A stretch of DNA of 63,970 bases, the filler included, from Circinaria calcarea (Eukaryota), in NCBI GenBank assembly GCA_051942165.1. It is 6 parts of 6 records of this genome, joined end to end, with 100 filler letters (N's around TTAATTAATTAA, not from the genome) between each part and the next. Parts side by side here need not be neighbours in the genome. Positions count along the whole stretch, not along the records: positions 32,559 to 43,306 come from JAVECS010000767.1; 5 more parts are not named here. The stretch is one strand, 5' to 3'. The notes under the pieces are model-generated. The model did no database searches, was not told the DNA's origin, and saw only the letters and a program-made list of their open reading frames with translations. Positions 10,757 through 58,216 of this stretch are shown in pieces. Positions within the stretch are counted from its first letter, which is position 1; each line of letters opens with the position of its first letter. The translations under genes and the position numbers were made by a program.

Positions 10757-10856
10757 NNNNNNNNNNNNNNNNNNNNNNNNNNNNNNNNNNNNNNNNNNNN
10801 TTAATTAATTAANNNNNNNNNNNNNNNNNNNNNNNNNNNNNNNNNNNNNNNNNNNN
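10757..10856. other. Artificial contig linker
   Basis: 44 N + TTAATTAATTAA (stops in all six frames) + 44 N. Confidence 0.98.
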
Positions 10857-12574: not shown

Positions 12575-13508
12575 TGTAGAGCTCGAGATAGACTCAACCA
12601 ACTCCCATGCATTCCAATACGACGTTGTCTCACATGTGCTATTTAAGAGGAACGAGTGGCACACATTTCAAGGCCCTCTACAGACTGCATCAATGAAATG
12701 AACGAGGCATTTCTCAAATAAGAGAATATGTTACCGCCAATTGTATTGAATCATCTGCAGGACCTTGCCATATACCACGAGTTCCGGGAGCAGATCCGTT
12801 GACAATCGACAAAGGCGGAATCTCAGCCGCGTAAAGCACCCTAGTCCGCATTAGGTTAGCGCCCGTACAGCTCCTCAATTCACGAACTCCCAAGCCATTT
12901 CCTTCTTTCCTTCGCGTTCTTCAACCTGCTTTCCTGAAGAGAGGCCAAAATTCACCCACTCGACCGTGAACGCTTAGGGGAGAGAACGGAGTCAAACTTA
13001 TCACTATCAGCACGTCCTGCTATCCCGGAGAAACTACAAAAGGTTTGAATTAGGGAGGATCCTGTGCGGGGGTTTCTTACAACCTCTCCAAGAATATTTT
13101 CAAGCCGTCCCTCACAATCACTCAGCACCTCTCGAGCCTCCCACAAGTACATCTCACGTCTCACACGCCTGTCGCCGTACTGCCCTCAGTCCGAACTCCG
13201 CACTTCCTCTTGCAATCATTGTGCTTGCACTTGGCCTCTTCCTCGCTATCACCTACACTACACCTCCAAATCATTCAAAGCACAACACCGTCATCCGATC
13301 CTCCTATCACCGCAAGTCCTCCCCGTCACTTGCGAACACCAGAGTGTATTCCGCTTGCCTACCCGATCCACTGCACCAGCACGTTTTCCTTGGAAACCCC
13401 CTGGTGTATATAGGCAATCAATCAAAATACTTTCAACCAGACGACCGTGCATAACTGATCCCTCCTTCGATCAATTGAGTGGAAAGAGATATTGATAAAC
13501 AGGCAACA

Positions 13509-15096
13509 ATGTCTGCTTCACCAACAACAAATGCAGTTCCGTCGACCAAGCGGCCCCTGGACGACGAATCATCTCCTTCAGGTCCGACCGACCAACCGGA
13601 CGCCAAGCGTCCAGCCTTGGACAAGACCGTGAAAGGCGAGGACGCAGAGGAAGAACAAAAGCCGAAACAAGAGTCGGTCGAGCCATCTGATGCGACCTCC
13701 ACCGAGACTGTCAAGGTTGAACCGGCTGCATCAGCTCTCGCTAACGGTCACAAGGATCTCCAAGGTGATACTGTAGTCCCTGATGCCCCCAACGGTACTG
13801 GTCCATCCGCTTCTGCGGTCTTAGATACTCAACCTATCCAATCCACGGCAGGCCAGCACGATCGCTCTACATCCCATGGACCCTCGCAGCATCAAGGCCA
13901 CCAGGACGAAACCGGCTGGATCCATGTGCGCGCCGTCATCTCGAGTGCCGAAGCAGCTACCGTCATCGGCAAGGGTGGCGAGAACGTTTCTCAAATTAGA
14001 CGGTTTTCTGGTGCCAAATGTACTGTGAGTGACTATGCCAGAGGTGCGGTCGAGAGAATTTTGACTGTCAGTGGCCTTGTCGATGCAACTGCCAAGGTAT
14101 GTCAATGTAAGGTCAATTCTTGACTACACCTTGCTAACAGAAACAAGGCTTTTGGGTTGATCATTCGGACTCTCAACAACGAGCCGCTGGAATCACCGTC
14201 TACACCCCAGTCGAAGACATACCCATTACGACTCTTGGTGCCTCATATTTTGATCGGGTCTATCATTGGCAAATCTGGTGTACGCATTCGTGAAATACAA
14301 GAAGCATCTGGTGCTCGATTGAACGCTTCTGATTCGTGCCTCCCTTTATCAACCGAGCGATCCTTGGTTGTTCTCGGTGTCGCTGATGCTGTTCACATCG
14401 CCACTTACTACGTTGGACAGACCCTCGTGGAACAGCTTACGGAGCGCTTTGGAGGTCCTGCCGCATCTGCTTATGCGACACGCAGCGGAGGACCCGCTGG
14501 AGTTGTTCCTGGTGGGATGCAAGTTGTGCCATACGTGCCTCAACCGGCAGGCGGTCAGTATGGTCATCCCGACAATAGCAGACGCCACACAAACCATCCT
14601 CAGCGTACCCCGGCAAACCCATATGGCGTGCCATACCTTCATGGCCAGCCACCACAGCAAGCACCACAAGCTGCCGTTCATTACGCTGGATCACCCCAAC
14701 ATGGCTATGCGGGTGCTGGACCACACCAACCTCAGCAGCATGGAGGCCATGCCCCACAGATTAATCACGCCGGCCCACCAGCCCAGCCGATGCAGGGTAT
14801 GGTACCAGGTCAATCGCTAACTCAGCAGATATTCATTCCGAATGACATGGTTGGCGCGATCATTGGAAAAGGGGGGGCTAAGATCAACGAGATCAGACAG
14901 CTAAGTGGCAGCGTCATCAAGATAAACGAGCCGCAAGATAACAGCAACGAGAGACTGGTAACAATCACCGGAACTCAAGAATGCAATCAAATGGCCTTGT
15001 ATATGCTCTATTCCAGACTTGGTATGTTTTGATCACCTGCCCTGGATGAAGGGATTGCTAATTTGATACGCAGAGAGTGAGAAGCACCGTATTTGA
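13509..15096 (+). CDS. Triple KH-domain RNA-binding protein (Rnc1/Pbp2/hnRNP K-like)
   Basis: Three KH GxxG loops: VIGKGGENV, IIGKSGVRI, IIGKGGAKI; introns ~14097-14147 and ~15022-15073; ends ESEKHRI*. Confidence 0.93.
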
Positions 15097-17853: not shown

Positions 17854-18510
17854 ATCGGTAGGTTAGCCCTGGAAGGGGGGATCACCTTAACAGGGTTTGT
17901 TGCCGAGGGAGGAAGTGAAGTTGAGAGAAAAGCAACGTTGCTGCTGGGATACTATCTCGCTGATAGTCGTTGTCTATCTAGAATACCGAGTACTGCAAAA
18001 ACGGGCGTTCCTGATACTGAGGAGGAAGCATCGATGAGGGTTGTAAGACGGTGCATGACTCAGCTGGATGTCGTCAAACCTCGTCACGTCATTCTTCTCG
18101 CAGCTCATATCTGAGATGTGAAGTATCTTTCGACCATCAGCTTACACTATGACAGTAATTGAGTGGTTGGACGGAGCCCGGATGAATAGTTGACCGACTG
18201 GCCGTCATTTCAATCTCCTTCCCCCTGTACATTTGGCGACTGAGGCACAACGGCTGGGCGAAACTTGTAGATATCTATATCCCCCTCGTGCTCTTCATTG
18301 ATATCTCTCAGACAGGTGGTGGTCCCATTACTTGAAGCTGGAGTGGAACATCTGCGTCCTCCTGATGATGTCTTCTGTCAGACCCTGAAGAAGCTGGGCA
18401 ACCTTTTATCATCTATAGTTCGCTCTAAGTGGTCAGCCTTGTTACACGACTGTCCGGACCTGCAGAAAGTAACGGGCGTAAGGAAGGACGCCCCCTTCCG
18501 AAGATCAGCC

Positions 18511-21268
18511 ATGGAACATCCTACCACCAGCATCGGCGTCTTCTCCAATCCTACCCCTCAGTCAGGCAGTGAAGAGGCCTTTGCTTCGGCCGTAAAGAAA
18601 GGCCGCCTTCCTGATCCATCAAATGCCTCTTCAAGCACGACGGCTGGGACGACTGTCCCCCGAATCCGTCGACGAAATCGCATGATAACCTCGTGCTTGG
18701 AATGCCGTCGACGGAAACTGAAATGTGACAAATCGCACCCATGTGCGAATTGCACCAAGTTCACCAGGGATTGCGTCTTCCTGGCACCGGCGTTGGACTC
18801 GGCCTCGCAGCTCAAACTAACGGAGATCAAGGAGAAAATGGGATCCCTGGAGAGAGTATTAGAGCAGGACGTTGCCATGAAGGGTCCCCGAAAGGACCAG
18901 GTAAAGGGTGGCTTTCTACCCAGGACCGAAGAAATTGATTTCGCCCCTGAACCCGAAGACGAGAAACATCTCGAGCAGACCCCCTTGGCGGTCATGGATG
19001 CGGTATATGAGGATGACGCTGACGACGATCTTACGGATTTGGGCATTCAGCTGGGGAAGTTGAGGCTAACGGACAGATTAGGGGGCTTCTTTCGTCCCAA
19101 GTTCAGTGAAGAGGTTTGGAATCCACTCTCTGCTACTTACCGGGAGCTTGCCGTATATTAACAATCGATGGGTAGATTACAGTTAGTTTGACAGATGTGA
19201 GATACGATCGTAGATCTCCTGCCGAGAAATCCGAGTCACCCGAGTCCTATGGCGCTCCCAAGCTGCATAATTTTCTCGCTCCAGGACCGAGCTACATCGC
19301 GCCTACCTCTGGTTTCTTTTTTGCCATTGGGAGTCATGGCACTTCTTTGATCGACTTTCTTCCCTCCAGACTTGCAGCAGACCGTCTCATGCAGCAGTAC
19401 TGGTATGCCGTCCATCCTATTGCACGCGTGGTACACCGGCCGTCCTTTGAAAGGAGATATGAGACCTTCTGGAACGAGGTTCAGATGGGTATTGAGCCTG
19501 TAGGCTCGTTGCAAGCTATAGTCTTTGCTGCAATGTTTTCAGGCGTGGTTAGCATGCCCGAGGAAGTCATCCTAAGAGATTTCGGTGTCGCGAAGAAGGC
19601 TTTGGAGGAGAATTTCCAGCAGGGTACCGAGACAGCCCTTACCAGAGCGAACATCCTTCGAACTACAAAGGTTGAAACACTTCAAGCCTTTGTCATGTAC
19701 ATGGTATGTCGAATCCTATTGGAATGTGAAGTTCTTTTATCATCGTGTAGCAGTATACGTATTTTCATCTACTCCATTTTAGTTCACCTACACTGGTCCA
19801 AGTAGATCTCTATGTTGCATTGATGATTAATACTTCAAAATTCACTTCCTTTCAATGTTTTTGATTACAGTTTAGTCTTCTCTACGACATGATGTATCTG
19901 CGTCTAATACATCCTCCTGCTAGATTCCCCTATGCCGGGATCAACTGTCCCGCTCACATTCTGCCCTATGTGGTACAGCGATTCGCCTGGCAGAATGCAT
20001 GGGTTTACATCGGGATGGGTCTGACTATGGGTTTACTGCTCTCGAAATACACGTCCGTCGCCTAGTTTGGTATCAGCTCTGCCTCCTCGACCTTCGAACA
20101 TGTGAGGCACAAGGGCCGAGACCGGGTATAAGACGAGAGGACTACGATACGAAGTATCCACTCAATGTTGACGATGTCGAACTCGATCAGCTTTATCCTC
20201 CAACAAAGTCTTCGGAACGGTGGACTGACATGACCCTTACTTTAATCAGAATTGAGTGCAATGATATGCATCGTATAATCTGGGTCGACCGACCACGGCT
20301 GGAGAAGAAGCAGATAAGCCTCACGTTAGTTCTTGGCAAAATCGAGAGCTTTAGAAAGATGATGTACGAGAAATACCTGCCTATGATAGATGATAATATC
20401 CCCATACAAAAATGTGGGCGGATAATCTTGAACCTACTCATTTCAAGGATGCACATTATGGTACTCCATAGATACCACAACGGCGTCGCATTTGCTATTC
20501 CAGGTTAGATATTTAGTCCCCCTTCCGTTGCCTTACTGAATACCTCTAGACCGCCTTCGCCAACTCATTCTCACTTCTGGCACCGAACAACTTGAATCGG
20601 GTATGCTTTTGGAAACCGACCCTGCCATACGCCCCTGGGCCTGGTACGCCGGCGCCTTGAACCAATATCACACTGCACTCCTCCTCTTGGTCGAGGTTTA
20701 TGCCTTCCCAATGCGCAAAGAAGCAGACCGCATTTGGAAAGTCGTCGATTACGTTTTCGAGATGCCTCCGGACCTGTCTCGAACCCAAAAAGCCCGCATC
20801 ATCTTGACCGAACTGCGGGATCGCATCGGCGCGTACAACGAAGCTCGGAAGGTCAGGGCTCCGAAAGAGATGTTGCAACGATTAGGGCAACAGCCACCGC
20901 GACGGGCCGGTGATGAGGGGGAGGACCTACCAGCAAACCCGTCCCGATTCGAACTGATAGTCCCGCTACAGCCTCCTGGGTCAGGGACGAACGAAGAGTA
21001 TAAGCGTCTGTTAATGCTGCCGGCAGAGACAGCACGGGTCCGGGAGAGCAGCTCCGATACGAACAGTAGCGCGGGGAATGTAGCAAGTATGCCGCAACCA
21101 ATAAGTATGACTGACGATTTAATGGCTGATATCGATTGGGTATGCTCCGCTTTCCTCTTCTCTCTGTTCTATTCTTGCCTTTTTCTTTCCGGCTAACTTT
21201 TGGGTTAGAATGAATGGGATAAGCTATTTCCGCCCGATATCAATACCGGCGACCTCGATATTATATAA
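18511..21268 (+). CDS. Zn(II)2Cys6 transcription factor with fungal-specific TF middle domain (multi-exon)
   Basis: SCLECRRRKLKCDKSHPCANCTKFTRDC cluster; AIRLAECMGLHRDG...EIHVRRLVWYQLCLLD; terminal exon DIDW|NEWDKLFPP. Confidence 0.93.
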
Positions 21269-21609: not shown

Positions 21610-21709
21610 NNNNNNNNNNNNNNNNNNNNNNNNNNNNNNNNNNNNNNNNNNNNTTAATTAATTAANNNNNNNNNNNNNNNNNNNNNNNNNNNNNNNNNNN
21701 NNNNNNNNN
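21610..21709. other. Artificial contig linker
   Basis: N44-TTAATTAATTAA-N44. Confidence 0.98.
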
Positions 21710-23011
21710 CAACCTTCTCCCACCCGTTCCCCTCCACCGCCTCCCTCGTCCGAGGGACAACCTTCCGCATGGGCCTCACGTCCGCCTTGGCGCCACTCAG
21801 CGGCGTCGCCAAGCCGACTCGCTCCATGGTACTGTAGGTGCCGATGTTGCCGTCCGTGTCGGCGTGGGTGATGAGTTCTTTGCGACGGGTGTCGACGAGG
21901 AGGCGCATAAGGTCCGGGCGCATGTAGTGACCGCCGAGGTCGGCGAGGGCTTTGGGGAGGTGGGCTTCGTCGAGGTCGATCTGTTGGGAGGAGGAGGGAT
22001 CGGGGTTAGAAGTGGTGGTGGGGTTTTGGGGTAATGGGAGTGGGGACTTACGTCGACAAGGACCAAGCCTTCAAAATCCTTGTCGGGTTTGGCGAGGAGG
22101 GCACCGTCAGGGCCAAAGATCCTGGTATGGCCGTTGTACCGATCGGGAGTCTCGACTTCCACGCCAGGCGGGGTGTTCTTGGCTACACCTTCTTGGGAGA
22201 TACGCTGGAATGGAGCGAGAACGAAAGTGCCTGTTTCAATGGCATAGGCGGGGCTCACGATATCGGAGTTGCCATCACTAATATTAGTATAGGGGTCCGG
22301 ATATTGAAGCGTCGTCTTGTCGGGATAGATGGGCCAGGCGGCCACATGGACTTGCTCTCCTAAGCTGGCGGCATATGCCTTCAAGAACGGGTTCAAGTTC
22401 TCCCAGCAATTCAACTGTCCGATACGTCCGATATCAGTGTCCACCACAGGTTCGAACGTATCTCCCGCTCCGTCTCCAAAGATGAGTCTTTCTACGTGAG
22501 TGGGCTTGATCTTTCGTCTGTGATTGAGAATGTCCCCGGTAGGGGAGATGAGGACCTGAGCAAGGTGTAGAGTTGCCATGTCAATCTCGCTGTAACCTAA
22601 GGAGACGTAGATGCCATTTTCTCTAGCCGCGGCCCTTATCCGACGCATTTCGTTCGAGTCTGAAGGAAGGCTGTTTTGACGGTATCGCTTGAGGAAAGGA
22701 AGGGATTGCTGGTAGTTGCTAGGATTGCCGTCAGCTCGACTCAGACTTCACTCATCCCAATGGCATGATGGTCGAACATTTTCCACATCCAATACGGGTA
22801 GCCGGGGATCCCTGCCACCGTTAGGGACAGGAACTCGTGCCAATCGTGGTCGAGGAAGCTCACAAACTTCGGGGAAAGCGACGAGCTTGCATCCTGCTTT
22901 ACCAGCCTCATTGATCCAATGAATAGTCTTCTGGACTGCCAACTCGAGATCAAACCAGCCGGGCTCGGCATGTACAGCCGCGGCCTTGTATTTTTTAATC
23001 TGAGCAGGCAT
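21710..23011 (-). CDS. CHT: Cyanide hydratase (nitrilase superfamily); 3' end cut by the contig end
   Basis: [17 protein letters not shown]...[16 protein letters not shown]...[17 protein letters not shown]...[14 protein letters not shown]...[20 protein letters not shown]; Glu-Lys-Cys triad with the CWEN variant typical of cyanide hydratases. Confidence 0.9.
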
Positions 23012-32458: not shown

Positions 32459-32558
32459 NNNNNNNNNNNNNNNNNNNNNNNNNNNNNNNNNNNNNNNNNN
32501 NNTTAATTAATTAANNNNNNNNNNNNNNNNNNNNNNNNNNNNNNNNNNNNNNNNNNNN
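32459..32558. other. Artificial contig linker
   Basis: N44-TTAATTAATTAA-N44. Confidence 0.98.
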
Positions 32559-35016
32559 AAGATCCTCTTGAGCAGCCGAGCCGAAGCGGATATTGCGGGC
32601 TTACTCAAAGATCAAGAATTTATTCGTGTGGATAATCGAAACTCTGGAAGCATTCAGACGTTCGTGACGCAGCGCACTGAAGAGTGGTTTAGTCAATACA
32701 ACTTTTTGCCAGAAGCTCAAGCTGAGATCCGGGGGTTTTTAGCGCCACTCGCTTCAAATGCAAAAGGTATGCCTTTGTTCTCTAATCCAGAATCACAGAC
32801 AGGCACTAATTGTCCAAGGCATGTTCCTCTACGCCGAAGTGGTTTTAAGTAGTATGGACTACTTGGATGATATCGAAAAGATACGGGAGGACTTCAGCGT
32901 CCTCCCAAAGAGTTTAGATGACGCGTAAGGCCTTAATTGCCTCCTCGAGATCCGAATGTGCTCTTATGTGTGTCAAATTTACTTCAGAATCCTCAATCGA
33001 ATCAACCAGTTGCGTCCTTCAGAAAAGGATAGAGTTCGAAAGATTCTTGGCTGGGTCGGATGCGCACCGATGCCTCTGACGCGTCAGGAGATTGAGCAGG
33101 CTCTAGTTGTCAGCGGTGAGGGTAACAAGGAAAATACGAAGGTGATTGCTGTCCTCGACATACCCAGGATTTGCGGCCCAATTATCGAACGGGTCGACGA
33201 CTATATACAGTTCGTCCACTTCACTGTGAAGGAGTAAGTTCTAGAATAAGCCTTGATAAACGAGCCGCTAAATCTGAATTCATACAGATATTTTTTCAGT
33301 TCAAGTATTACTGGGTCCTTGAGTGTTGCAGAAGCGAAATTAGGCCTCGCGGTGTGTTGCGTCACGTATCTTTGCCAAATGCACCACGATCCTGACCTGC
33401 TGGATGAAGAAATCGACGGCAATATCCTCTCCGGAGCATACCGACTTCATGACTTAGCAGCAACCACATGGTTCGAACTTGTCGAGCTTTCTGTCCCCTT
33501 ACTCAAACAAGAAACCACTCTATCTCCCAAATTCATTGACGCTCTTGAAACGCTTAGGTGCGGAAGAACTAGTGGAACGTATGATAAAGGCGCCGAGACG
33601 TTTACTGCGTCAAGTCTGGAACCTTTCAAATCGATTTCCCCCACTTTGCACGATATGCTCCGCGAAGTGGCTTACTTTCGTCGGGCATCTTTGAAAAGTA
33701 ACTTCGATGAGGACAATGGTATGATGATAGATCGATGCCTCTTGCCTTATCATTCGATTTAACTAATCTCCATAGATTCCTCATGGACAAGCCTCGATCC
33801 TCTGACAATATCAGCCACCTCTGTCCGTATCCATCAGCGATTAAGAAATCTATTGTGTCGAAACAACAAACATCAGGATTGCCAATGCGAGATCATCCGA
33901 TGGCACTACGGTCAACGGCCCTTCAAGTGTGGTTTCCTAAACTGCTCATTTCGCCGCCATGGGTTTGAATCGAGGCCACTCCAAAAGTCACACATGAAAC
34001 ATCACGATCGACCCTGGAACTGCCATTTTGAGGACTGTGAATACACAGAGGGAGGCTTTCTCTCACGAAAGATGCGAGATGATCATTACCGGGATCACAT
34101 AACAACTAACCCCCAAGGGACAGCTTATTCGGAGAATGTAGAGGCGGACGAAATCCAACCGCTTCTTTTCGACTTGATCAAGGCCGACAAAGTGGACGCT
34201 GTCAGGAATCTCATGGACCAGTTCAAGGCTCTACCCGCAGAGATCCAAGAGGCACTTCAAGAATGTGCGGCTTCTGTTGGGTCAGCTGCAATGATTGATT
34301 TGATCCAGCCATTCGATAAATCTTTTCCGATTGATCTTTTGAAGATTTCCATACGAGCTGCAAATGTTGATCTCTTCAAGCACTTATTGTCGCGGAGTAA
34401 AAAATGTGAATTTGTAGATAATAATGGTGGTAAATATGATCATGATCCTAAATATTGGACGGTATTCAAGGAAGTTTTAGAGTCCGATTCTGAGGAAATT
34501 TTCGAAGAATGGGTAAAGTATGCCAATGTCGAAACTAAAGAATCTGAACAGAGAGGATCGCTCCCTTTTAGGGCACAGTACATAAAACCATCTATATTCA
34601 GGGCTACTGCTGGACATCCCAGCAGGGAAAACTTGCTGATTACTACCTGGGAAGAGCTTGGTGTTTCGGAATTACTCGGTCGTCCAACTCTTGGGAGAGC
34701 ACTTGCGGATGTGGTGTCAACGACGTATTCGGTCAAGCTTGCGAAATATCTCATTGACCATAAGGCAAAGGTGGATTTCAGACGCAGCGACTTGTACTTA
34801 ACACCGCTTCATTATGCTGCGCGGCAAAATTCAGCAGCGGCCGCGGAGATGATGAGGTATCTCCTCCTCCAGGGAGCAAATCCCGAGCTCAAGGGCGGAC
34901 GCGCGCGTTTGAGGATTTGTGAAGAGAAGGGTGCGAAGGGAATCGCAAAGTGGTTGGGAATGTCCTGGGATGAGCTCGTTGCAAAAACCAAAGAGGAAAG
35001 GGAGAAGATAGCATAA
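32559..35016 (+). CDS. NLR-like protein: NACHT C-terminal/winged-helix region, two C2H2 zinc fingers and C-terminal ankyrin repeats (5' truncated by contig start)
   Basis: ILLSSRAEADI...LASNAK|GMFLYAEVVL...LPKSLDDA...ILGWVGCAPMPLTRQEIEQAL...RICGPIIE...FVHFTVKE|YF; FKCGFLNC...HMKHH and WNCHFEDC...HYRDH fingers; LTPLHYAARQNSAAAAEMMRYLLLQGANP. Confidence 0.85.
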
Positions 35017-35180
35017 GAGACAGCGAAAAGCATTCATTGATATCAAATACATAGAAGAAAATCATTGTATGATGGCCCCCATAGTCGCTTATTGGATGTT
35101 TCACGTAGCACTCAAGGATAAGAACTTTTATTCGAATCAGAAATGTTTCTAAATAGTCTAAGTCTTGATAATCAACTTTG

Positions 35181-38100
35181 TTACTTCAAGAATAACTTGA
35201 GTTTCTAATTGGGTTGTTAATCTCACCAATTTCATAATGGAACGAGGACGACTAACCTCATACTGACGATTTTCAATGTCATCTTGAGATAAATGCTCCG
35301 AGTCTATCGACTGGTTGATAAATTGCAATTTTTCGTCTTGGATTCTCTGGATGTACTGGACAGAATCAGTATGTTAATTTTTATTAAATAGGTCGTACTC
35401 TGATCTACCCTTTCAATAGAGTTGAGCATGATATATCTAGTGATCACGACTTCGCGTTTTTGTCCTATTCTGTGCACCCGGTCTACAGCCTGCGCCTCTA
35501 CCATTGGATTCCACTGGGGTTCGATCAGGTGTACGTGGTTGGCGACAGTGAGGTCAACCCTAACACAGTCACGTTGTGTAAGCTCTGGCGGAACATTATG
35601 AGTGTGCAAGTGGTCAACACACCCTTCCCCGGCGCTGCCAATACTGGCAAGCATGATAGTATAGCGTGGATCATCATTGAACAGTTCCAAGGCCTTGCTC
35701 CTGTTTTCAAGGCTTGTCTTGCCGTCAATCCGTTGGAATCGGAAGCCGTGTTCCTGGAGTGCTTGTTGGATCAAGTCAAGCATTTTGATCCAGCAGCTGA
35801 AAATGACGCTAGTAATGATCAGCCAGGCACGAGAATAGCATTCTAAATAGAATCGGGATTGGAGACCTCTTAACGGGCTCTGGGGGCCTCTGATTTGTTT
35901 CAACTGCCTGTTCAGTGTGAAGGTTCCGTAACAGTGCCTCAATCTTTGCTGAAGGAGATAAGCCGGTTTCTGGAGGGCTGAGAAAGCTTGAATCCTCCCC
36001 AGAATTTGGCGATATTGCACATTTCGGGCATAAACCCTCCTCTCTGGATGTGCTCTCACTTTGCAGAGCACAGATCGTACAAATCCAGTGGCGACAGCGA
36101 GGTTCATTGCCATTAGAAGCAACGAATTCTGCATCTTCAATATCTGTTTCGCAGATGCAACACCTCCTTCGGCATTTTTGCATTATTTGCCAGTTGATTA
36201 ACGTGCTATTCCGTGCTTTCCAGGCATCCAAAGCTGGTTGAGGTAGGAGCTGTAATCCATGATCACAAATGAGCCGTAAGAAATTGATCAGGGAAAGTAT
36301 ATTGCCGTGTTCGAGTTTGCCCACTTCCTGGAAACTCTGCTTCGTTGATATACCTTCAGCCATTTTTGCGCATTTTTCTTTAAAGAAGGTGTACAGATCT
36401 TGATCTGTTTCGTGAAATTCAATACTTTCGATTCTCTCTGTCCGCCTTGGCAGCTTACACAAATCCCCGAGCGTCCTCTTCGTGCGTCGGAGACAGGTAG
36501 CTCTAATGAGGTCTTTGAGTCTCCGCAAGCCATCTGCCCTCTGGTTTTCGAGAGGGTTAGCGATCCAGAAATCAAATTTAGACTTGTTCTTGAATGGGGG
36601 AATGGCGAGAAAACTTAACAGTGCGCCGTAGTCATCCAGAGAATTTTGTATGGGTGTTCCTGTCAAACACCAACGACAATGTGAAAGGACTGCGCAAGCG
36701 GCTTTGAAAGCCTGAGAACACCGATTCCGAATATGATGTGCTAATATTCCAGTTAGTAATGAGCTACAGCAGCCTTTCATGGAGGCTCTGTTACTGACCT
36801 TCATCTAGAACGAGACGATACCATTTAGCCGAATATAGCGGACCCTTATCCGACCAGTCAGACCTGAGTGTTTCATAGGTTGTTAAGATGAGATCATTGT
36901 TATTGAGAATAGAAGACGAGCGACTAGACCCCAGATACTTATCGACCCGCAAGTTATTAGGATGAATATGGCTAACAATTGATCAGATCGTTAAACCTTC
37001 CTGTTGTTCGGGGTTTCGCACCTGTCAATTTGTCGAATCCAATTGGGTATTGCTCAAATAGTCAATTAGCCAGGAACCTTATAAGACACCAACCAAAGTC
37101 GCACATACTCGATTTAGGTGTAACCACCAAAGTCGCACTAGACATCCCGCTATGTGCTCGGTTTTCCTGCTCATCAAGGGTTGAGCAGATTAGAGCCAAG
37201 AGGCTCAATGTTTTCCCCAATCCCATTTCCTGGTTCAATTGTCAGCAGCGCCTATTCAGCAAAAAGAACCCAAAATTTGACAAACTCACATCAGCAAGAA
37301 CTCCCCCCCGCAGAGGTCTGGGAGATCTCTCATATTGACCAGTAATCCTATGACGGTACCTGCACCACGCTTGTCAGAGTCTTTACAATCCTTTTCATCA
37401 ACGTCATCTCCAACTGACTTATTTGCTGCTCCAGTCAGAGAGTTCATCTCCCAGATCGATGGAAAGGTGGCATTTTCGACAATTCCATACTCTTTCTCGA
37501 TCATCATGGAGAGAGCTGTGAGCTGGTGGCTGCATATTGTCAGTAGTCCATTGTTATCTGGCAACTGGTGCTTACTCTTTTAGGGTCGACCGGAGACGTG
37601 GGCTGGCACTGATTTGCGAAGTGATCCCAAGATTATCTGCGGAGTCGAAGACTCGCAATAGTCTGCTCATCTCCACCTCATCCAGATTTCCAGGGGCTTT
37701 GATGGTGCGGGTGTTGGAGGATATCGACAATTCTGCCAATACTGGCAATTGACATCCAGGACGGACAAGATAGTGAGGATTGCAGTATGTGACGTCTGTA
37801 TCACATTCCGTGGCTGATGGATGTTGAAGGTATAAAGACTCCTTCGAAAGCAGATTACCCACATCACTTCTCTCACTCTTGAGCCCATAGATAACGATGC
37901 GCACAGAGCACTCCTGGCTTGAAAAACGGTTCTTTGTGTTTCTAACCGTGGTTGGCCTAGATTTAGGTGGTGACGTGACCAGAGTTGCGCTGAATCTCAC
38001 GAAGAATTTGTCAAGTAGCTCGCACAGGGCTGGTAGCACTAGAAGACCTGCATATTTGTTTGAGTCTTGGAAATAGAGCTTGAGAATTTCTTTGCATGGT

Positions 38101-39000
38101 GATATATTTACAGGAGCCGAGTAGCTGCCCTGGTCACCAGTGAAGGAGGATAGAGCGTCTGCCACGATCTTCAATCGGTTAGATTGACTTTTCAGGATAA
38201 CGATATGATTTTCTTACAACTCCAAAGCAAGCGTCGTATCGATCCATCTCAGATCCTCTTGGAACACATGCTGGACCTAAACCATCACGTCAGTCATCAC
38301 ATTATATGTCCGACTGAGCGCCTGAATCAAAGCATGTTAATGGCTGACCTGGATAAGTATTTTCGAGGTTAATCTCTGTGCTATCAGGTTCCGAAGCAAT
38401 AATGCTCGAAGGTCGACTTATTGACTCCAATATATCCTGGGATATTGCATCTCCTTCTGAATTAGGTGGGGAGTCGCCAGTAAATTGTAGAGTTATATCA
38501 GAGTGGTTATCCCGAATGCTTGACGCTGTTGAAGCTTCGTGAACGTATTCATCGATCGCTGTTGTATTTGATACCTCCGTTACTGCGCCTTCTTGGATGA
38601 TACCATCAAGAAGGTATTCTATATTGAGCTCCGAGTCTGTTTGGGTAGCAATATTGTAGGGACTTTCGTCCACGAAACTCTCCATGCTAATTCCGAATCC
38701 TGGATTATGTGTCTCTACTTCACCCAAGGCCTCATGTGTGGGATACCCGGGGCGAATGTCAGGCCAATGAGACCCCGAAAGCAACTCGGCGGCATGCTGT
38801 GGATCGACATGTCCAGATAAGTTGGTGGCCGGGTTTAGTTGATGTAGCGTATTCACATATCCATCTAAAACGCCATTCTGGGCTCCCCACGATGATGAAC
38901 TATAGCTAGACGTTGTGGTAGTTCCGTGGTTATGATTATATGCGACAGGCCGGGTGCATCGTCTCTTAGACTCTCGGTAAAAATCATGTGTGTCGTCCAT
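35181..39000 (-). CDS. SNF2-family helicase with inserted RING finger (Rad5/Rad16-like; multi-exon)
   Basis: HQLTAL; GGVLAD|EMGLGKT (motif I); LTTYETL; RLVLDE|AHHIRN (DEAH); WCLTGTPIQN; CLRRTK; C3HC4 RING CCIC...CRHWICTIC...CPKC; SAKIEAL; RIDGK; EPQWNPMVEAQAVDRVHRIGQ; last exon KLKLFLK*. Confidence 0.9.
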
Positions 39001-39562
39001 GATGGGTCTTTTGTCACCAATCAAAAGATGCCAGATAGAGAAACTATGACGTAGACAGGACCTCACGGATGAGATAGAGCCTTGAATGGAGCTCTGTTGC
39101 GGAGTAGGGCTTCAGAAATAGCTACAGTAAGGTGGCTAGATCGACAGTGGTGAGAAATAGAACAAGAGGCCTTGAGTGAGGCTGTATGCCAAAGCCTATC
39201 TCATAGTTTGGCAAGCATCCAGTCAATCATCATCCCGTTCAGCTAGACAAACCTTCTCGGTATTTGGGATGCTGTCAAGATCATGTAAACAAAGAATAGC
39301 TGCTACTACCTCACGCTTACATTACTTATGCCTTCTACTGTACGGAGTCGTGCATCAAAAGTCTTCGATATACGCTAACTGCAATGAGATAGAGCTAATT
39401 TTTTTGTGTACTAGCGTCACATCAGTAGGTAGTAGACCATAAAAGGTGGCCTCAGAAGGCCCATTGGCCAAAGCTTTGGTGACTCGGGACAGTGAGCCAT
39501 TGGCTGAGTGTGTTGAATTTATGTGAAACGGCTATTGATTTGCTATGTGGGAGACTCGTTAT

Positions 39563-40750
39563 TTATACATGAATGACACTAACGCTAAGCCTAATACGGT
39601 CCATAGGGCGACTTCCAACAGCGGCGCCCATCCCTCTCAGTCCGGAGCCCGAGTCAAACGGAGCACACCGTATACACCCTATTCATGGCCCCAGCCTACC
39701 TTTCTCGTCCACACAGCTGTGTCACCCGGCTCCCCAGCACGATAACAGAATGGAGTATGCCGCGTAAGGGGAACATGATTGAAGCGGAAGTCTCAGACAC
39801 TGGCATACACCATTCTGTAGGCACTAAATGCCATCACCGTCCCGATAATTGCCCCAGCTAAGCAGTCGTACCAGTCGTGGAACTCGTCGATGGTCAGCAC
39901 ACCAGCAATAAGTGTGGCACCAAGAATCGGAGCGTAGACAGCAATAAGCTTCCAGAATGCCGGGTGATAGTTGGAAAGAACTTTGAGTTTTGCGTTGAGG
40001 TAGATGAAGAGAAACACAAAGCCAGCAAAGGCAGCAGTGGAGTGACCCGAAGGAAAAGATTCAAGAGAGTCGTCGATATGATTTCGGTCGCCGGTACAGA
40101 TACTACGATAGTACATGATTTGGCGAAGACCGTTGCCGATCTGAATACCATTGTTGGGAATGGAAGGCTGGCAAACTGTAAGGAAATGAGGGTGAAGACC
40201 ACCGATGAGCCACTATGTTAGATAATTAGTGAAAAGTACTGGGAACAGGTGTCCCTAGCCAATATGCCTTGATGAGAACTTTGAAAACTGCAGTGGTGAT
40301 CAAAGAGTAAAGAAGACGAATGACAGCATTGTTAACGTCCCAAAATGAACGAATTCGAATCTGCATCAACAATATCACTGCAATGGGAACCAAGGAGGCC
40401 AGAAGTGCTGCAAGCCAAATAGGAATGATCTCCTTGCGAAAAGGATATGCGAGTTGCGGATACACGATCTCACCATCTTGGAAGTAAACCGGAAAGGAAC
40501 GTGTAGGTGCTGGATGGGCGTGGTATACTCCCAACCCGGCCGCCCCGAGTATCAGCATCGTTAGGATATCCAACCAGGTAAACTTAAGCCATTTCCCAAA
40601 GGAGGGGCGGCGGTTAAGTTAGCTTGAGTTCTCATCGTAAGATGTTCGGGCAACCTTTTCATGATGATGCTGGTCAACACCGGTATCTGCAGTAGTGTTG
40701 GTCGAACTAGCAACATTAGTAGTGTGTGGGCGGCGATTGAAGAGACCTAT
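39563..40750 (-). pseudogene. PAP2/DPP1-like lipid phosphate phosphatase pseudogene
   Basis: K|WLIGGLHPHFL, SFPSGHS and FHDWYDCLAG motifs; presumed start reads ATA (40750); in-frame TAA (40619-40621), TGA (39793-39795) and TAG (~39679); apparent 3' frameshift; GC intron donor. Confidence 0.8.
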
Positions 40751-41386
40751 GATTGAGAGGTATCGTTGACTGGTAGTTGAAGAAGGCAAGGCGAGAAGAG
40801 GGATGATGGGTGGAGATTAAGTGAAAAAAAACCGTGACGACACGCTGCAGCCGTGAATTTGTATGTGCAAACAGTAAATACGGTTTGCTTCAACCTAGTC
40901 CGGAGACTTGCAGTAGCTGGAGCTTCACTGCATACGAGTGGACACAAGGCAGTAACAAATAATTAGAGGTTAATGAGAAAGGCGTGGGTGAAGTCTGCCT
41001 TTAAGTAGGCACGGCACATTCACTTTTCCCAGCCATATCTGACGTGCAAATAGAGACATAGTATCAAAGGTTTGATGTAAACAATACTACAATTAGGGCT
41101 CGTGTGTGAGCCAGATGATGCAAAAGGAAGGTTGCCTGAACCGAAATATGGCACACAAAAATGACCAAAAAAATAAAATACAATTATTTTAAGATCAACG
41201 AGAACCTGAGCCGAGTGGATATAGTCCGACCAGAATTCGGGCAACGATGGAGGGCTCAGCTCAACACGCCGCACCCGAAAGTATTCTTTTAGACCAGATC
41301 TAGCCTGAAGCTAAGATTACCATTGACCGCCATCATGGGTTTTTTAGACTCTCTTCTTTCATCTTGGACAGTTACGCCTTATAGTT

Positions 41387-41648
41387 ACTGTCGAACTTTA
41401 CGGGGTTTCTGAATGCTCGTGGTAAAGTCTAGTGAGTAGGCACTGAGTCACGTCTCTAATTACGTGTGCACAATGCAGTGAGTGAGGCAGTTCATACACT
41501 ATGATTCGAATGCAATTCGTGTTCATTCGGAATCTATGAAAAGTCTGCGGTTCTATGGAGAGAAAAACAACGCTTTTTATGAGTCTCGCTTACTGAACTC
41601 CGGGGTCCGAGCTCGCGAGTTCACGTGTACGGTGCCAAGTTCGACAGT
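41387..41648. mobile_element. MITE-like element family A, copy 1 (~260 bp)
   Basis: Perfect 12-bp TIR ACTGTCGAACTT...AAGTTCGACAGT; the first ~190 bp closely match 47050-47240 on another contig. Confidence 0.8.
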
Positions 41649-42195
41649 TACTTATATATACTTTCAAAATCTGTACACACCCCTAAACGCCAAGACATGC
41701 CCTTAGGCCTATTCGGCTATTTGAGTTTACCTCAGCATCGAGATACCCTAGCCATTGGTTGACAGGGACAACTGCCTATTTTCTTTGCGAAGCTACAGAA
41801 ATCCCTTGTCAGGTGAAAATCCCCGCGCTTCAATCATTACATTAAGAATATTGGGGTCATATTACTACGAAGAAGCTACAATACTCAGTCACATCACATT
41901 GCCCCGAGCTCAAAGCACTTGCTTTCATTTATGGCGCAGTTCAAAAGATCAACTGTCTAGTATGCGGAGGACCATGTCGACCGAAATCAGATTGGATAGT
42001 GTACACGCGTCATGTAGAATGAGTTATCATGAAATGCTGTCGTGTATTTCCTGGCCTGTGAAAAGGCTACACATGATCAAACAACCAACGATCAATCCTT
42101 CCAGATATGTGTACTGCTTGAAGAACCATAAGCCGCAAAAAGATCCGCAGTGTGGCCGACGGGTTGAGACACGTTAGTATCGTTCACCCGCCATT

Positions 42196-43297
42196 TCAGT
42201 CTGCAGATTTCTTGGGCTTTTTCTCCTTGGGTGCTCTGACTGTTCTCTCCGCCTTGGCTGTGGCTTCCTTTGCGGCCTTGCGCGCTTCCGAAACCGTCTT
42301 TTCTAAGACGCTGACCCCGTCTCCAGTAGCCTCACGCACCTTCTCCTTGCTAAGATTTTTCTTGGCGGCTTTGACTGTCTTTCCTGCCTTATCAACAGCT
42401 TCGTCTGCGGTGTTCTTCGCAGCGTTTGAGGCACCGGCTACCACATCCTCAGTGGTACTGGCATTTTCTGTCTTTGCCTCCTTCTCCTTCTTCGAGCCTT
42501 TCTTATTTCCTGCAAGTGTCGTTCCAGTTTTCTTCGCAACCTGGGTTGCTACTTCAATGACATCCTGCATAGCGTTGTTGCTTTCCGAGAGAACGTTGTC
42601 ATTTGCACGCTCGGTCTCCGATTTAGCTTCCTTCCCCCTTTTCCCACCCCTCTTTACCTTTTTACTCACGACTTCCTCGACGGTCACCCAAGTACTCTCA
42701 TTCTCGCCACTACCCACAACCACCGTCTTCTCTTCAACAATTTCTTCAATCTCACCTACATCCTCGACCGACTTCTCTTTCTCTTTCTCTTTCTCTTTCT
42801 CTTTCTCTTTCTCTTTCTCTTTCTCTTTCTCTTTTTCTTTTTCTTTTTCTTTTACTGGCACGGTATCCACCCCTTTGAGCTCGCCGCCGTCAAATTCGTA
42901 CCCAATCTTCTTAAGTTTCTCTTGCTTATCTTCTCTCCTTTCCTTCTCACCCTGAATCCTCTTCTCCCATCCCTCTCGTCCCATCCCCATCTCCAGTTGC
43001 CTTCCTTGAATCTTGTTCCAAGGCACAGCTTTAAACCGTTTGTTAGCTCCCTTCCATAGCTTCTCGTGAACCTGCTCCTTGGGAATAACACTGCATTTCA
43101 GGATGTGGTTAAACATGAGATAGTTGTTCATCGTATCAGCGACAATCTCGGCGACGTCTGCAGATGCGAACTCTATGAAAGCGTAATGCTTAGATTTACC
43201 CGTCGACTTGTTACGTGAGAGACGAAGTCGTTTGATGGTTCCGAATTGAGTGAAGTAAGCGTGCATCTCGTGTTCGTAGAAGCCATGAGGAATACGA
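42196..43297 (-). CDS. NOP15: Nucleolar RRM ribosome-biogenesis protein Nop15/NIFK (5' exon(s) lost at the contig end)
   Basis: RIPHGFYEHEMHAYFTQFGTIKRLRLSRNKSTGKSKHYAFIEF...TMNNYLMFNHILKC...LWKGANKRFKAVPW; Lys/Glu-rich tail. Confidence 0.92.
42773..42852. repeat. Coding hexanucleotide microsatellite (TTCTCT)n encoding a KE repeat of about 13 units
   Basis: Direct reading; translates as KEKEKE... in NOP15. Confidence 0.95.
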
Positions 43298-43306
43298 CTA
43301 CGGTCA

Positions 43307-43406
43307 NNNNNNNNNNNNNNNNNNNNNNNNNNNNNNNNNNNNNNNNNNNNTTAATTAATTAANNNNNNNNNNNNNNNNNNNNNNNNNNNNNNNNNNNNNN
43401 NNNNNN
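43307..43406. other. Artificial contig linker
   Basis: N44-TTAATTAATTAA-N44. Confidence 0.98.
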
Positions 43407-54145: not shown

Positions 54146-54245
54146 NNNNNNNNNNNNNNNNNNNNNNNNNNNNNNNNNNNNNNNNNNNNTTAATTAATTA
54201 ANNNNNNNNNNNNNNNNNNNNNNNNNNNNNNNNNNNNNNNNNNNN
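54146..54245. other. Artificial contig linker
   Basis: N44-TTAATTAATTAA-N44. Confidence 0.98.
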
Positions 54246-57004: not shown

Positions 57005-58216
57005 ATGGCAGCAAAGGCAAGCTAAATCGCGGGCATATTTTCTGCCTGCGATGCAACGAGATTGGATTGAGACTAATTCACATTACCAACACAGAACCTA
57101 TCCTTCATTCTCAATGCCCCCTACAAAGTCTCCTACGAAGACCGCCCCCTTCCCTCTCTACAATCTCCCCATGATGTTATTGTGCAGGTCAACTGGACCG
57201 GAATCTGCGGCAGCGATGTACCTCTTCCTCCTCTCCTCTTCTTCCACCCAGAGTAATATATCCTAACTCTCCCCAAACAGATACACTACTGGGACTCCGG
57301 TGCCATTGGGAAGTTCGTCCTCACCTCCCCCATGGTTCTTGGCCACGAATCTTCCGGTACGATCTCTTCTGTTGGTTCCGCCGTCACTTCGTTGAAACCC
57401 GGCGACCGCGTGGCGCTAGAACCAGGGGTGCCGTGTCGGCGGTGCGAGAGTTGCAAAGCAGGCCACTATAACTTGTGTCCACATATGGCGTTTGCATCTA
57501 CTCCGCCCTATGATGGGACACTGGCCAAGTATTACTCCCTCCCGGAAGATTTCTGTCACAAGTTACCCGAGGGCATGACCCTGGAGGAAGGCGCGCTGGT
57601 CGAACCGACGGGTGTAGCGGTGCACATTGTGCGTCAAGCGGATGTGCGACCGGGGATGAGCGTTGTCGTGTTCGGGGCAGGTCCGGTCGGCTTACTGTGC
57701 TGTGCTGTAGCAAAGGCGTTTGGGGCGGGAAAGGTAGTTACGGTTGACATCCAAGAAGGGCGCGTCAACTTTGCGAAAAGCTGGGTGCAGGGGGGTGTTG
57801 GAACATTCATCCCCTCCCGTGAGTCCTCCTCCGAAGAAAACGCCGCCAAACTCGTATCCGAAAACCATCTCGGCGCAGGGGCGGACGTGGTCATCGACGC
57901 CAGCGGGGCGGAAGCCAGCGTGCAAACAGGCTTGCACGTCGTGCGCGAGGGGGGAACCTATGTGCAGGGTGGCATGGGCAAGAACGAGATCACGTTCCCG
58001 ATCATGGCGCTGTGCATCAAGGAGGTCACCGTGAAAGGAAGTTTCCGGTACGGTAGCGGGGACTATAAGCTGGCGGTGGATTTGATTGGGCAGGGCAGGA
58101 TTAGTGTGAAGGAGCTGGTAACGAGGAAGGTCAAGTTTGAGGAGGCGGAGCAGGCGTTTAGGGATGTGAAGGGTGGGAAGGGGATTAAGGTGTTGATTGA
58201 GGGGGTGAAAGATTAG
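57005..58216 (+). CDS. xdhA: Xylitol/sorbitol dehydrogenase (Zn-dependent MDR; 3 exons)
   Basis: NLSFIL...TGICGSD|IHYW...MVLGHESSG...GDRVALEPGVPCRRCESCKAGHYNLC...FASTPPYDGTL...FGAGPVG...GSFRY. Confidence 0.92.

Follow-up and report, generated by a model that had tools for sequence, protein, structure and literature searches.

Why should a gene for an NLR-like protein lie tail to tail with a gene for a SNF2 helicase, and do the two belong together? The question is raised by one contig of a Circinaria calcarea MAG (positions 32559-43306), studied here as part of the window, i.e. the whole 63,970-nucleotide stretch of DNA analyzed, which is built of six contigs with N44-TTAATTAATTAA-N44 spacers between them. 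On this contig, the NLR-like gene (+) and the SNF2 gene (-) are convergent, as the sequence-only reading had described, and the exon models leave an intergenic spacer of 164 bp (35017-35180) between the stop codons ending at 35016 and 35181. Given this short distance between convergent stops, the 3' ends of the two transcripts may overlap here. The orientation and spacing of the pair were read at the Circinaria calcarea contig only.

The NLR-like gene (32559-35016, +) is cut at its 5' end by the contig start and retains its 3' 743 codons, distributed over five exons (32559-32766, 32819-32924, 32988-33233, 33288-33718 and 33776-35016) with four GT-AG introns and without an internal stop ahead of the stop codon at 35014-35016. 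The translation matches the public model P0001 at each of the latter's 733 aa and aligns with P0002, a homologue of 1160 aa, over residues 408-1157, so that the alignment begins after Walker B. Approximately 407 N-terminal residues comprising DUF7708, Walker A and Walker B therefore lie beyond the contig start. The winged-helix domain following the NACHT module (32988-33233, +; Pfam GPIID_WHD, E 2.6e-5) scores 25 bits in the window, just below the Pfam cut-off of 27 bits, which is reached by three full-length homologues that begin with DUF7708; PF22939 is precomputed for P0001. Pattern and alignment analysis revealed two tandem C2H2-type zinc fingers (33928-34098, +; CX4C-X15-HX3H twice), whose eight ligands are all invariant across 27 aligned sequences and whose pattern is present in 107 of the 126 NLR family members. 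In sequence these fingers weakly resemble those of CTCF and WT1 (best E 4.8e-4). Pfam returned neither a zf-C2H2 match in the window or on the finger segment nor any other zinc-finger family there; 12 copies of the Crz1-type finger-site word GNGGCKCA were counted in the window versus 15.7 expected. The protein ends in an ankyrin-repeat solenoid with a conserved C-terminal helix (34144-35013, +; fold and Pfam Ank, E 5e-7), which spans about 290 residues by fold in an AlphaFold model of pLDDT 83.8, and the top Foldseek matches of this model were all ankyrin-repeat proteins (276-388 aligned columns).

Across the NLR family, Walker A was found in 112 and Walker B in 124 of the 126 members, and Pfam NPHP3_N and NACHT matched all four full-length homologues scanned. 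The N-terminal domain of the relatives, off contig here, is DUF7708, whose Atlas clusters overlap the Goodbye and NACHT_N families (scores 0.84-0.92). Read from these sequences, the order of domains in full-length relatives is a Goodbye-like DUF7708, NACHT, winged helix, helical spacer, two C2H2 fingers and ankyrin solenoid. Hypervariable repeats are typical of allorecognition NLRs. In this family the majority fraction amounts to 0.62-0.67 in most domains, a value as low as 0.36 being confined to the first half of the ankyrin solenoid, and the NLR is, as judged from the alignment, well conserved and devoid of such hypervariable repeats.

The SNF2 gene (39000-35181, -) is Rad5/HLTF-like and intact, with 13 exons encoding 1047 aa from an ATG at 39000 to a TAA at 35183-35181, no internal stop, and 12 introns of 46-72 nt, all GT-AG. 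Exons 1-2 (38218-39000, -) encode an acidic, S/T-rich N-terminal region recognized by composition and matching no Pfam family (aa 1-235: 37 D/E, 10 K/R, 49 S/T). The first ~125 residues of the 197-aa exon 3 (37794-38168, -) are predicted to fold as a HIRAN-like domain, and the linker that follows, to 37576, contains most of the invariant residues of the alignment. Foldseek searches with the domain model (pLDDT 78.7) returned Rad5 or HLTF HIRAN domains as the top 12 matches (E 3e-3 to 4e-2), and VIA-align superposed it on the HIRAN domain of HLTF (4xzg_A) with Z 9.9 and an rmsd of 1.8 over 92 residues; Pfam HIRAN matched 0 of 39 SNF2 family members at E<=1, so that the HIRAN assignment holds at the fold level only. 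The ATPase core (exons 4-11; 35409-37529, -) carries Walker A at aa 498, DEAH at aa 602 and motif VI at aa 980 in intact form (GLGKT, DEAH and QAVDRVHRIGQ) and is recognized by Pfam as SNF2-rel_dom (E 7e-31) and Helicase_C (E 7e-12). Between the two ATPase lobes lies a C3HC4 RING finger (aa 797-844; 36019-36162, -), assigned by pattern and aligned with the Rad5 RING, and the closest solved relative of the protein is K. lactis Rad5 (6l8n, E 2.4e-98). With the N-terminal domain taken from the model, the SNF2 protein has the Rad5/HLTF layout of HIRAN-like domain, ATPase and embedded RING.

The RING pattern is present in only 58 of the 120 listed SNF2 relatives and in 10 of the 33 paired ones, and the RING is deleted in whole clades and decayed in many relatives; the activity conserved at the core of the family therefore cannot be ubiquitin ligation. 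Two SNF2 paralogues from different clades were detected in Xylaria palmicola, Thozetella sp., Paraphoma chrysanthemicola, Fusarium anthophilum and F. austroafricanum, which argues against the SNF2 gene as a single housekeeping RAD5 copy. The alternative named in the sequence-only reading, a single-copy housekeeping RAD5/RAD16 orthologue, is thus opposed by these paralogues, by the loss of the RING and by the Pfam HIRAN result, as far as it was testable here. Among the 120 matches listed, all SNF2 relatives are Pezizomycotina or metagenome records.

Both proteins look functional, because their frames are open, indels are harmless to the frame and the Walker and finger motifs of the NLR family are kept. 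The indels were judged against a relative of both genes, 90-95% identical, from the biocrust metagenome run X1: all frame-breaking indels fall in predicted introns or in the spacer, and those in exons are in frame or compensated. No contig of X1 bridges the spacer, with loose ends at 35056 and 35077. As to the composition of the two proteins, the sequence-only reading was accurate: the NACHT-associated winged helix, two C2H2 fingers and ankyrin repeats, the intact SNF2 ATPase with C3HC4 RING and long acidic N-terminus, and the position of the NACHT Walker motifs and N-terminal domain off contig were all recovered. Its description of the surroundings as an accessory-type context with a pseudogene and a MITE was not supported. 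The other genes on the contig, both outside the pair, encode a PAP2-family phosphatase (39793-40618, -; Pfam PAP2, E 2.3e-18) and an RRM protein cut by the contig end (42196-43306, -; Pfam RRM_1, E 5.9e-12); no neighbouring pseudogene was identified, and the MITE was rejected with inverted repeats of 14-17 nt only. A tandem-duplication origin of the convergent layout was also discarded, as 39001-43306 contains no NLR or SNF2 remnant (best E 0.32). Neither a transposase gene nor any further gene of a mobile element is present on the contig, and long terminal repeats are absent as well. The 39.0-39.8-kb region upstream of the SNF2 gene shows no word array and a single 12-nt two-copy repeat; the promoter of the NLR gene lies beyond the contig. 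In a related metagenome, the segment 41468-41646 shows the behaviour of a dispersed repeat.

To what extent the two genes travel together was assessed by comparing the best 120 of 232 and the best 120 of 316 homologues, so that the pairing counts are lower bounds; a pair was defined by the same species label and a contig of identical size. This comparison revealed at least 33 NLR/SNF2 same-contig pairs, covering at least 32 of the 47 species labels common to both homologue lists, compared with about 2.4 of 47 expected by chance if the genes were placed at random in a genome taken to be 35 Mb in size. At least 10 pairs carry consecutive gene numbers (Bogoriella, Zopfia, Trichoglossum, Neopestalotiopsis, Madurella, Cudoniella, Pestalotiopsis fici, Lophiostoma, Parastagonospora and Monosporascus), three contigs as short as 6719, 8864 and 11579 bp contain both genes, and adjacency spans six fungal classes. 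For 15 of the 47 labels no same-contig pair was found among the matches listed, some of these labels comparing different strains, and in four species of the Fusarium fujikuroi complex the two genes are located on different contigs. A metagenome scan yielded two short loci only (L001, 1575 bp; L002, 1262 bp), without neighbours, and no relative was found in a prokaryote genome collection searched with the NLR profile or in viral contigs.

Gene trees built from the 33 pairs and the window genes mirror each other, with 18 of 31 splits in common and a Mantel r of 0.90; none of 2000 permutations, free or within-class, reached the observed split sharing or Mantel r. Both trees group Trichoglossum, Cudoniella and Phialemonium from three different classes, as well as Madurella and Whalleya from two orders. 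The same-contig pair of Xylariaceae sp. FL1651 falls into different clades in the two trees, and the window NLR is placed weakly, beside a long branch (support 62). Much of the congruence is explained by shared species history. Adjacency in six classes together with the same cross-class paralogous lineages in both trees implies that the two genes were apparently duplicated or relocated jointly and not merely left in place. A dedicated pair, as proposed in the sequence-only reading, is thus supported in this sample by shared contigs, consecutive gene numbers and matching trees, and the case that would have spoken against it, homologues that are rarely adjacent, does not apply here.

Since the two genes stay neighbours across many distant moulds, they probably constitute one two-protein unit, so far undescribed and predicted to act on DNA; its DNA-related parts are the HIRAN fold, Rad5 as the best solved relative, and the CTCF/WT1-like fingers. 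We consider it rather probable that the Circinaria calcarea genes represent a single copy of a pair that has been kept as a unit across Pezizomycotina and that is passed on, and apparently also duplicated or relocated, as a whole; its first gene would encode an NLR-type STAND switch and its second a paralogue of the Rad5/HLTF kind.

A functional unit of this composition could also serve a specialized branch of replication-stress or DNA-damage tolerance instead of defence, the STAND switch with its DNA-binding fingers regulating or recruiting the Rad5 paralogue at particular lesions or loci. Such a role would agree with Rad5 as the closest solved relative across the whole core, the presence of a HIRAN fold, an NLR that is conserved instead of hypervariable, and the ordinary character of the remaining contig genes (PAP2, RRM). 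Against it stand the presence of more than one SNF2 paralogue from different clades in several species, the loss from many members of the RING, on which PCNA ubiquitination by Rad5 depends, an NLR N-terminus that goes with Goodbye/NACHT_N-type domains typical of fungal NLRs, and SNF2 relatives that are, among the matches listed, all Pezizomycotina or metagenome records. We regard this explanation as doubtful and weakly favour a role in conflict or defence, directed at foreign DNA, transposons or viruses, rather than one in routine damage tolerance.

Two further explanations dispense with a joint host function. The genes might be neighbours for regulatory or historical reasons, such as an old shared promoter, a chromatin domain or slow synteny decay, and work independently, which would fit the lack of a demonstrated common motif between NLR N-terminus and partner and the fact that shared species history predicts much of the tree congruence. 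Yet the copy studied here is tail to tail, where a shared promoter is impossible, and the genes are still adjacent; adjacency extends over six classes, and class-crossing paralogous lineages match in both trees, leaving independence improbable. Alternatively, a mobile or selfish element that spreads horizontally could carry the pair as cargo or have it as its core, in which case the conservation of the pair would reflect the element and not a host function. The cross-class groupings in both trees and the several copies in some species would agree with such spread, but this contig carries no transposase, long terminal repeats or element genes, the neighbouring genes are ordinary, no second-copy remnant is present in 39001-43306, and searches of the viral and prokaryotic collections gave no relative, so that we judge a mobile origin very improbable.

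Returning to the two-protein unit, a possible course of events can be proposed. The Rad5-like motor would engage a DNA structure through its HIRAN-like domain and ATPase, candidates being a free 3' end, a stalled fork or foreign DNA entering the cell. The NLR could then read this engaged state by its fingers and ankyrin surface, either on the DNA or on the motor, whereupon its NACHT module would oligomerize and the N-terminal domain relay a response, e.g. signalling or cell death; either partner could be the sensor and either the executor. Tentatively, and with low confidence, we take this further to a nuclear innate-immunity module, in which an HLTF-like factor would patrol for foreign or aberrant DNA and the linked NLR would guard it against parasite interference, or be activated by this factor on DNA by way of the fingers and ankyrin surface, with NACHT oligomerization firing the Goodbye-like domain to cause cell death or signalling. 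To our knowledge, triggers and partners are unknown for almost all fungal NLRs; if the proposal is true, no earlier fungal NLR would match this one in having both a defined, conserved partner and a trigger linked to nucleic acid. The NLR is unusual in its conservation across classes, its DNA-type fingers and its one defined neighbour, a Rad5/HLTF-like motor, and the tail-to-tail copy indicates that adjacency can persist without a shared promoter. The pair offers a concrete, genetically tractable handle on fungal NLR activation and would tie STAND switches to eukaryotic DNA-structure sensing.

Among known systems, bacterial defence uses SNF2 motors (DISARM DrmD) or STAND/NACHT sensors (Avs, bNACHT). 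These belong to the same two protein superfamilies and act there against foreign DNA, a likeness by analogy only. Domain details differ, and a search of the prokaryote genome collection with the NLR profile gave no homologous pair. Plant paired NLRs combine integrated DNA-binding domains, a genetically linked partner and guard/guardee logic. The present pair is similar in having an NLR with a DNA-binding module and a linked partner, again as an analogy only, and differs in that the partner is not a second NLR and that there is no sign of effector targeting. In the openly accessible literature searched, no paper ties a NACHT/NLR gene to a SNF2/Rad5-like neighbour, and searches for 'DUF7708' and for six locus tags each returned 0 papers.

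As far as the accessible part of the source goes, a survey of Sordariales describes 34 NLRs with C2H2 fingers, mostly C-terminal, and treats the fingers as possible integrated decoys, while 'helicase' has 0 occurrences in it (PMC12258605). The architecture described here fits this class of finger-bearing NACHT NLRs as presented there, with the difference that its fingers do not vary from class to class and precede an ankyrin solenoid. Adjacent, co-inherited NLR and neighbour genes are also a feature of amyloid-signalling pairs of the NWD2/HET-S type, and co-localization of an NLR with a neighbour gene is discussed as a help to co-inheritance in the accessible part of PMC9815663, where 'helicase' and 'SNF2' both have 0 occurrences. 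Unlike those pairs, the present one has no short amyloid motif common to NLR N-terminus and partner: BLASTP with the first 260 NLR residues over the 33 pairs gave three matches at E<=0.01 in inconsistent positions, with limited sensitivity for very short motifs. Its NLR begins with DUF7708, a long helical domain, and its partner is a nuclear-type enzyme of roughly 900-1100 aa and not a small pore-forming effector.

The SNF2 protein itself compares most directly with Rad5 of yeasts and human HLTF, with which it shares the order of HIRAN, SNF2 translocase and embedded RING; the alignment with K. lactis Rad5 covers the ATPase core, the position of the RING and the C-terminus of the protein, and its N-terminal domain has the HIRAN fold of HLTF. 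This likeness is one of layout, fold and sequence similarity and does not imply RAD5 orthology or PCNA ubiquitination. Unlike Rad5 and HLTF, the family has a HIRAN-like domain that Pfam HIRAN does not recognize in 39 members, is multi-copy in some species with a RING often decayed or deleted, and is represented here by a protein with a long acidic N-terminus whose gene is linked to an NLR gene. For HLTF, a contribution to conflict with invading DNA has a precedent in that the human protein acts as a restriction factor against cytomegalovirus, whose protein UL145 degrades it, as stated in the accessible part of PMC6146656.

The window holds six contigs of about 10.7 kb each, in descending order of length, with N44-TTAATTAATTAA-N44 spacers between them (10757-10856, 21610-21709, 32459-32558, 43307-43406 and 54146-54245); as it is not one molecule, neighbourhood across the spacers is meaningless. 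The fourth contig (32559-43306; 10,748 bp), from a MAG of the lichen fungus Circinaria calcarea (Lecanoromycetes according to the NCBI taxonomy), carries the NLR-like gene and the SNF2 gene tail-to-tail, with 164 bp between the stop codons and both frames open within the contig. At its core, the sequence-only reading was correct to the base. The orientation of the pair was read in this window alone.

Five exons of the NLR-like gene lie on the plus strand within the contig (32559-32766, 32819-32924, 32988-33233, 33288-33718 and 33776-35016), separated by four GT-AG introns of 52-63 nt. The reading frame comprises 743 codons without internal stops and is identical to P0001, the public partial protein model of this gene, across its 733 residues. 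The product aligns with residues 408-1157 of the 1160-aa full-length homologue P0002, and because the alignment begins at residue 408, about 407 residues of the N-terminus, the Walker motifs among them, lie off the contig, as the initial reading had placed them. For intron 2 (32925-32987), the sole canonical acceptor is the CAG at 32985-32987, also used in P0001; it removes three in-frame codons (Y-F-R, in the 32979-32987 region) matching the conserved 'DDAY.RIL' motif of the family, which represents either a lineage-specific deletion of three amino acids or an unusual splice.

Three of the four full-length relatives scanned combine DUF7708, NPHP3_N/NACHT and a winged helix, with a C-terminal part barely annotated by Pfam, while in the fourth, P0041, a kinase is added at the N-terminus and no winged helix was matched. 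In the window, the post-NACHT winged helix scored 25 bits against a Pfam cut-off of 27, and one ankyrin repeat was called. Modelled with AlphaFold (pLDDT 83.8), the last exon forms an ankyrin solenoid from residues ~128 to 417, for which all top Foldseek matches were ankyrin-repeat proteins. Upstream of it are two CX4C-X15-HX3H fingers, without a Pfam call, whose eight ligands are all invariant in 27 sequences; the finger-pair pattern occurs in 107 of 126 NLR family members, and a sequence search against solved structures retrieved fingers of CTCF, WT1, GLI and YY1 (best E 4.8e-4). With majority fractions of 0.62-0.67, the N-terminal domain, NACHT, winged helix and fingers are the best conserved parts, and the first half of the solenoid is the least conserved (0.36). 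In the ESM Atlas, DUF7708, the N-terminal type expected off the contig, falls with clusters in which Goodbye and NACHT_N also occur (scores 0.84-0.92), all of which are typical fungal NLR N-termini with putative activity. A sub-lineage with an additional N-terminal protein kinase domain was represented by P0041 (Pestalotiopsis fici, 1811 aa) and P0046 (Neopestalotiopsis clavispora, 1683 aa), and the gene of the former is numbered beside its SNF2 partner (PFICI_07920/07919).

The SNF2 gene, on the minus strand with its start at 39000 and stop at 35183-35181, is split into 13 exons by 12 GT-AG introns of 46-72 nt, and encodes 1047 aa without internal stops, featuring GLGKT, DEAH and QAVDRVHRIGQ motifs, a C3HC4 pattern at aa 797-844 and 37 D/E versus 10 K/R over the first 235 aa. 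A profile of 39 family members identified K. lactis Rad5 (6l8n) as by a wide margin the nearest solved relative (E 2.4e-98, the next entry reaching 3.7e-71); the alignment spans SNF2 core, RING and C-terminus. Exon 3 (197 aa) matches no Pfam family, and Pfam HIRAN was found in none of the 39 members. Its model (pLDDT 78.7) is a beta-rich domain for which the 12 best Foldseek matches were all Rad5 or HLTF HIRAN (TM-score to target 0.58-0.65 for HIRAN entries); a second, independent aligner placed HLTF HIRAN above every other representative (Z 9.9, rmsd 1.8 Å, 92 residues). Given the Rad5 alignment and these fold matches, the predicted architecture is that of Rad5/HLTF, its HIRAN domain having diverged beyond what Pfam recognises. 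The invariant residues of exon 3 fall mostly in the linker that follows the HIRAN-like fold. Among the best 120 of 232 SNF2 relatives, each ATPase motif is kept in 94-104, and the C3HC4 pattern in 58; among the 33 paired members, 10 have the pattern. A Periconia/Lophiostoma/Paraphoma/Parastagonospora clade and the Aspergillus members shown have lost it by deletion. The putative RING is not a conserved feature of the family. The SNF2-family alignment A3 displays a stepwise decay, from full C3HC4 through the first and middle cysteine pairs only to deletion of the whole insert, the last stage being seen in a Dothideomycete clade and the Aspergillus members shown.

One protein collection was searched with the NLR last exon (49 matches), the largest SNF2 exon (best 120 of 232) and a profile built from 30 full-length NLRs (E<=1e-50; best 120 of 316), and a same-contig pair was defined as an NLR and an SNF2 match with one species label and contigs identical in bp. 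At least 33 such pairs were found, covering at least 32 of the 47 named labels common to both listings, against a chance expectation of about 2.4 labels for random placement in an assumed 35-Mb genome. At least ten pairs bear consecutive gene numbers, eight of them with positional NCBI-style tags for both genes, and those of Zopfia and Lophiostoma with JGI numbering. Contigs of 6719, 8864 and 11,579 bp each contain both genes, with no space for anything between. The remaining 15 of the 47 labels lacked a same-contig match among the matches listed; for Aspergillus fumigatus, A. turcosus, Endocarpon pusillum and Trichoderma harzianum different strains were compared, and in four species of the Fusarium fujikuroi complex the genes lie on separate contigs.

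Gene trees of the 33 pairs and the window, one per gene, had 18 of 31 splits in common and correlated patristic distances (r = 0.90), and neither value was matched in any of 2000 permutations with free or within-class labels. Species history accounts for part of this congruence. Several well-supported groups that cut across taxonomy nevertheless occur in both trees: Trichoglossum (Geoglossomycetes) with Cudoniella (Leotiomycetes) and Phialemonium (Sordariomycetes); Madurella (Sordariales) with Whalleya (Xylariales), the taxonomy of these two groups having been checked; and Colletotrichum with Nectriaceae, apart from Trichoderma and Cladobotryum. Because such groups recur in both trees, the pair behaves, judging by these sequences, as a single evolutionary unit through old duplications or transfers. 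Xylariaceae sp. FL1651 falls into a different clade in each tree; the window NLR is placed weakly (support 62) beside the long Pestalotiopsis branch, and the closest company of the window SNF2 exon is Melanomma and Zopfia (97*). As paired members occupy both halves of the SNF2 tree (best 120 of 232 relatives), NLR linkage appears ancestral to much of this family. The comparative evidence, with linkage far beyond chance and congruent trees, hence supports the dedicated pairing proposed in the sequence-only reading.

In one public biocrust metagenome run, contigs of a 90-95% identical relative cover both genes at similar word depth. Its listed 1-2-base indels across genes and spacer all fall in predicted introns (33745, 35227, 35245, 35370, 37568) or the spacer (35146), while changes in exons either compensate each other (34560/34562, 34686/34689) or preserve the frame (+GTT at 36343; 64 nt to 22 nt at 34401-34466, in the variable ankyrin part). 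This pattern supports both the predicted gene structures and the action of purifying selection on the two genes. A further listed indel lies at 39581, upstream of the SNF2 gene. No contig of this run bridges the spacer; the relative's contigs cease to match at 35056-35077, about 40 nt past the NLR stop and about 100 nt past the SNF2 stop, with unlike loose ends, so that its 3' spacer is either far more diverged than the genes or differently arranged.

The accessory-type context first suggested, with a pseudogene and a MITE, is not supported: the neighbours are a PAP2 phosphatase gene (39793-40618, minus) and an RRM protein gene truncated by the contig end (42196-43306, minus), and no transposase or long inverted repeats were found on the contig, nor, on its remainder, any trace of a further NLR or SNF2 copy. 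A stretch of ~180 bp (41468-41646; loose ends 41468, 41646 and 41647) recurs with unlike flanks on several contigs of the related metagenome, one copy lacking 69 nt (41543-41611, GT..AG ends), and a 16-nt inverted repeat (41383-41398/41637-41652) brackets the area; possibly, it is a small dispersed repeat corresponding to the supposed MITE. The RRM gene includes a long (KE)n low-complexity run (42700-42880, minus) from a GA-rich microsatellite, of which 42766-42864 was skipped as a repeat in read mapping. The other five contigs carry ordinary fungal genes (e.g. at 2685-5486, 7758-8561, 13479-15032, 18271-20508, 21797-22747 and 57257-58216), among them Rxt3, CLN3, a KH-domain protein, a Zn2Cys6 transcription factor, a nitrilase-family hydrolase, an alcohol dehydrogenase, mannosidase domains and a 2EXR/DUF7730 protein, and none of 24 large ORFs scanned in the window encodes a second SNF2 or NACHT protein.

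Two intact-looking enzymes with DNA-related parts thus share a conserved linkage and a congruent history, and we consider it reasonably probable that they work together on DNA or chromatin as a single functional unit. In such a unit, the Rad5-like motor would recognise a DNA structure via its HIRAN-like domain and ATPase, the NLR could read this recognition via its fingers and ankyrin surface, and NACHT oligomerisation would activate the N-terminal Goodbye-like domain. The main rival is a specialised damage-tolerance role. The SNF2 protein is built like, and predicted to work like, Rad5/HLTF; its status as RAD5 orthologue is doubtful. For the unit we slightly favour a role in conflict or defence, since the family is multi-copy with cross-class groupings, the RING is decayed and the N-terminus is of NLR type, and because there is precedent in human HLTF, which, according to PMC6146656, acts as a restriction factor against cytomegalovirus and is itself destroyed through the virus's UL145 protein.

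With its fingers, the window NLR matches a known group of fungal NLRs that carry C2H2 fingers at the C-terminus; 34 such NLRs were counted in Sordariales (PMC12258605). Linked NLR and partner genes are known from amyloid-signalling pairs (PMC9815663), but the shared motif that defines those pairs is absent here: no short motif common to the NLR N-terminus and the SNF2 partner was found. A helicase is mentioned in neither of the two papers, and no paper on an NLR/Rad5-like pair was found in a search whose coverage excluded most subscription journals and bioRxiv supplements. We conclude that the pair is a real feature, and that an NLR with a linked partner is of a known kind; the Rad5/HLTF-like type of partner is unprecedented in the literature searched.
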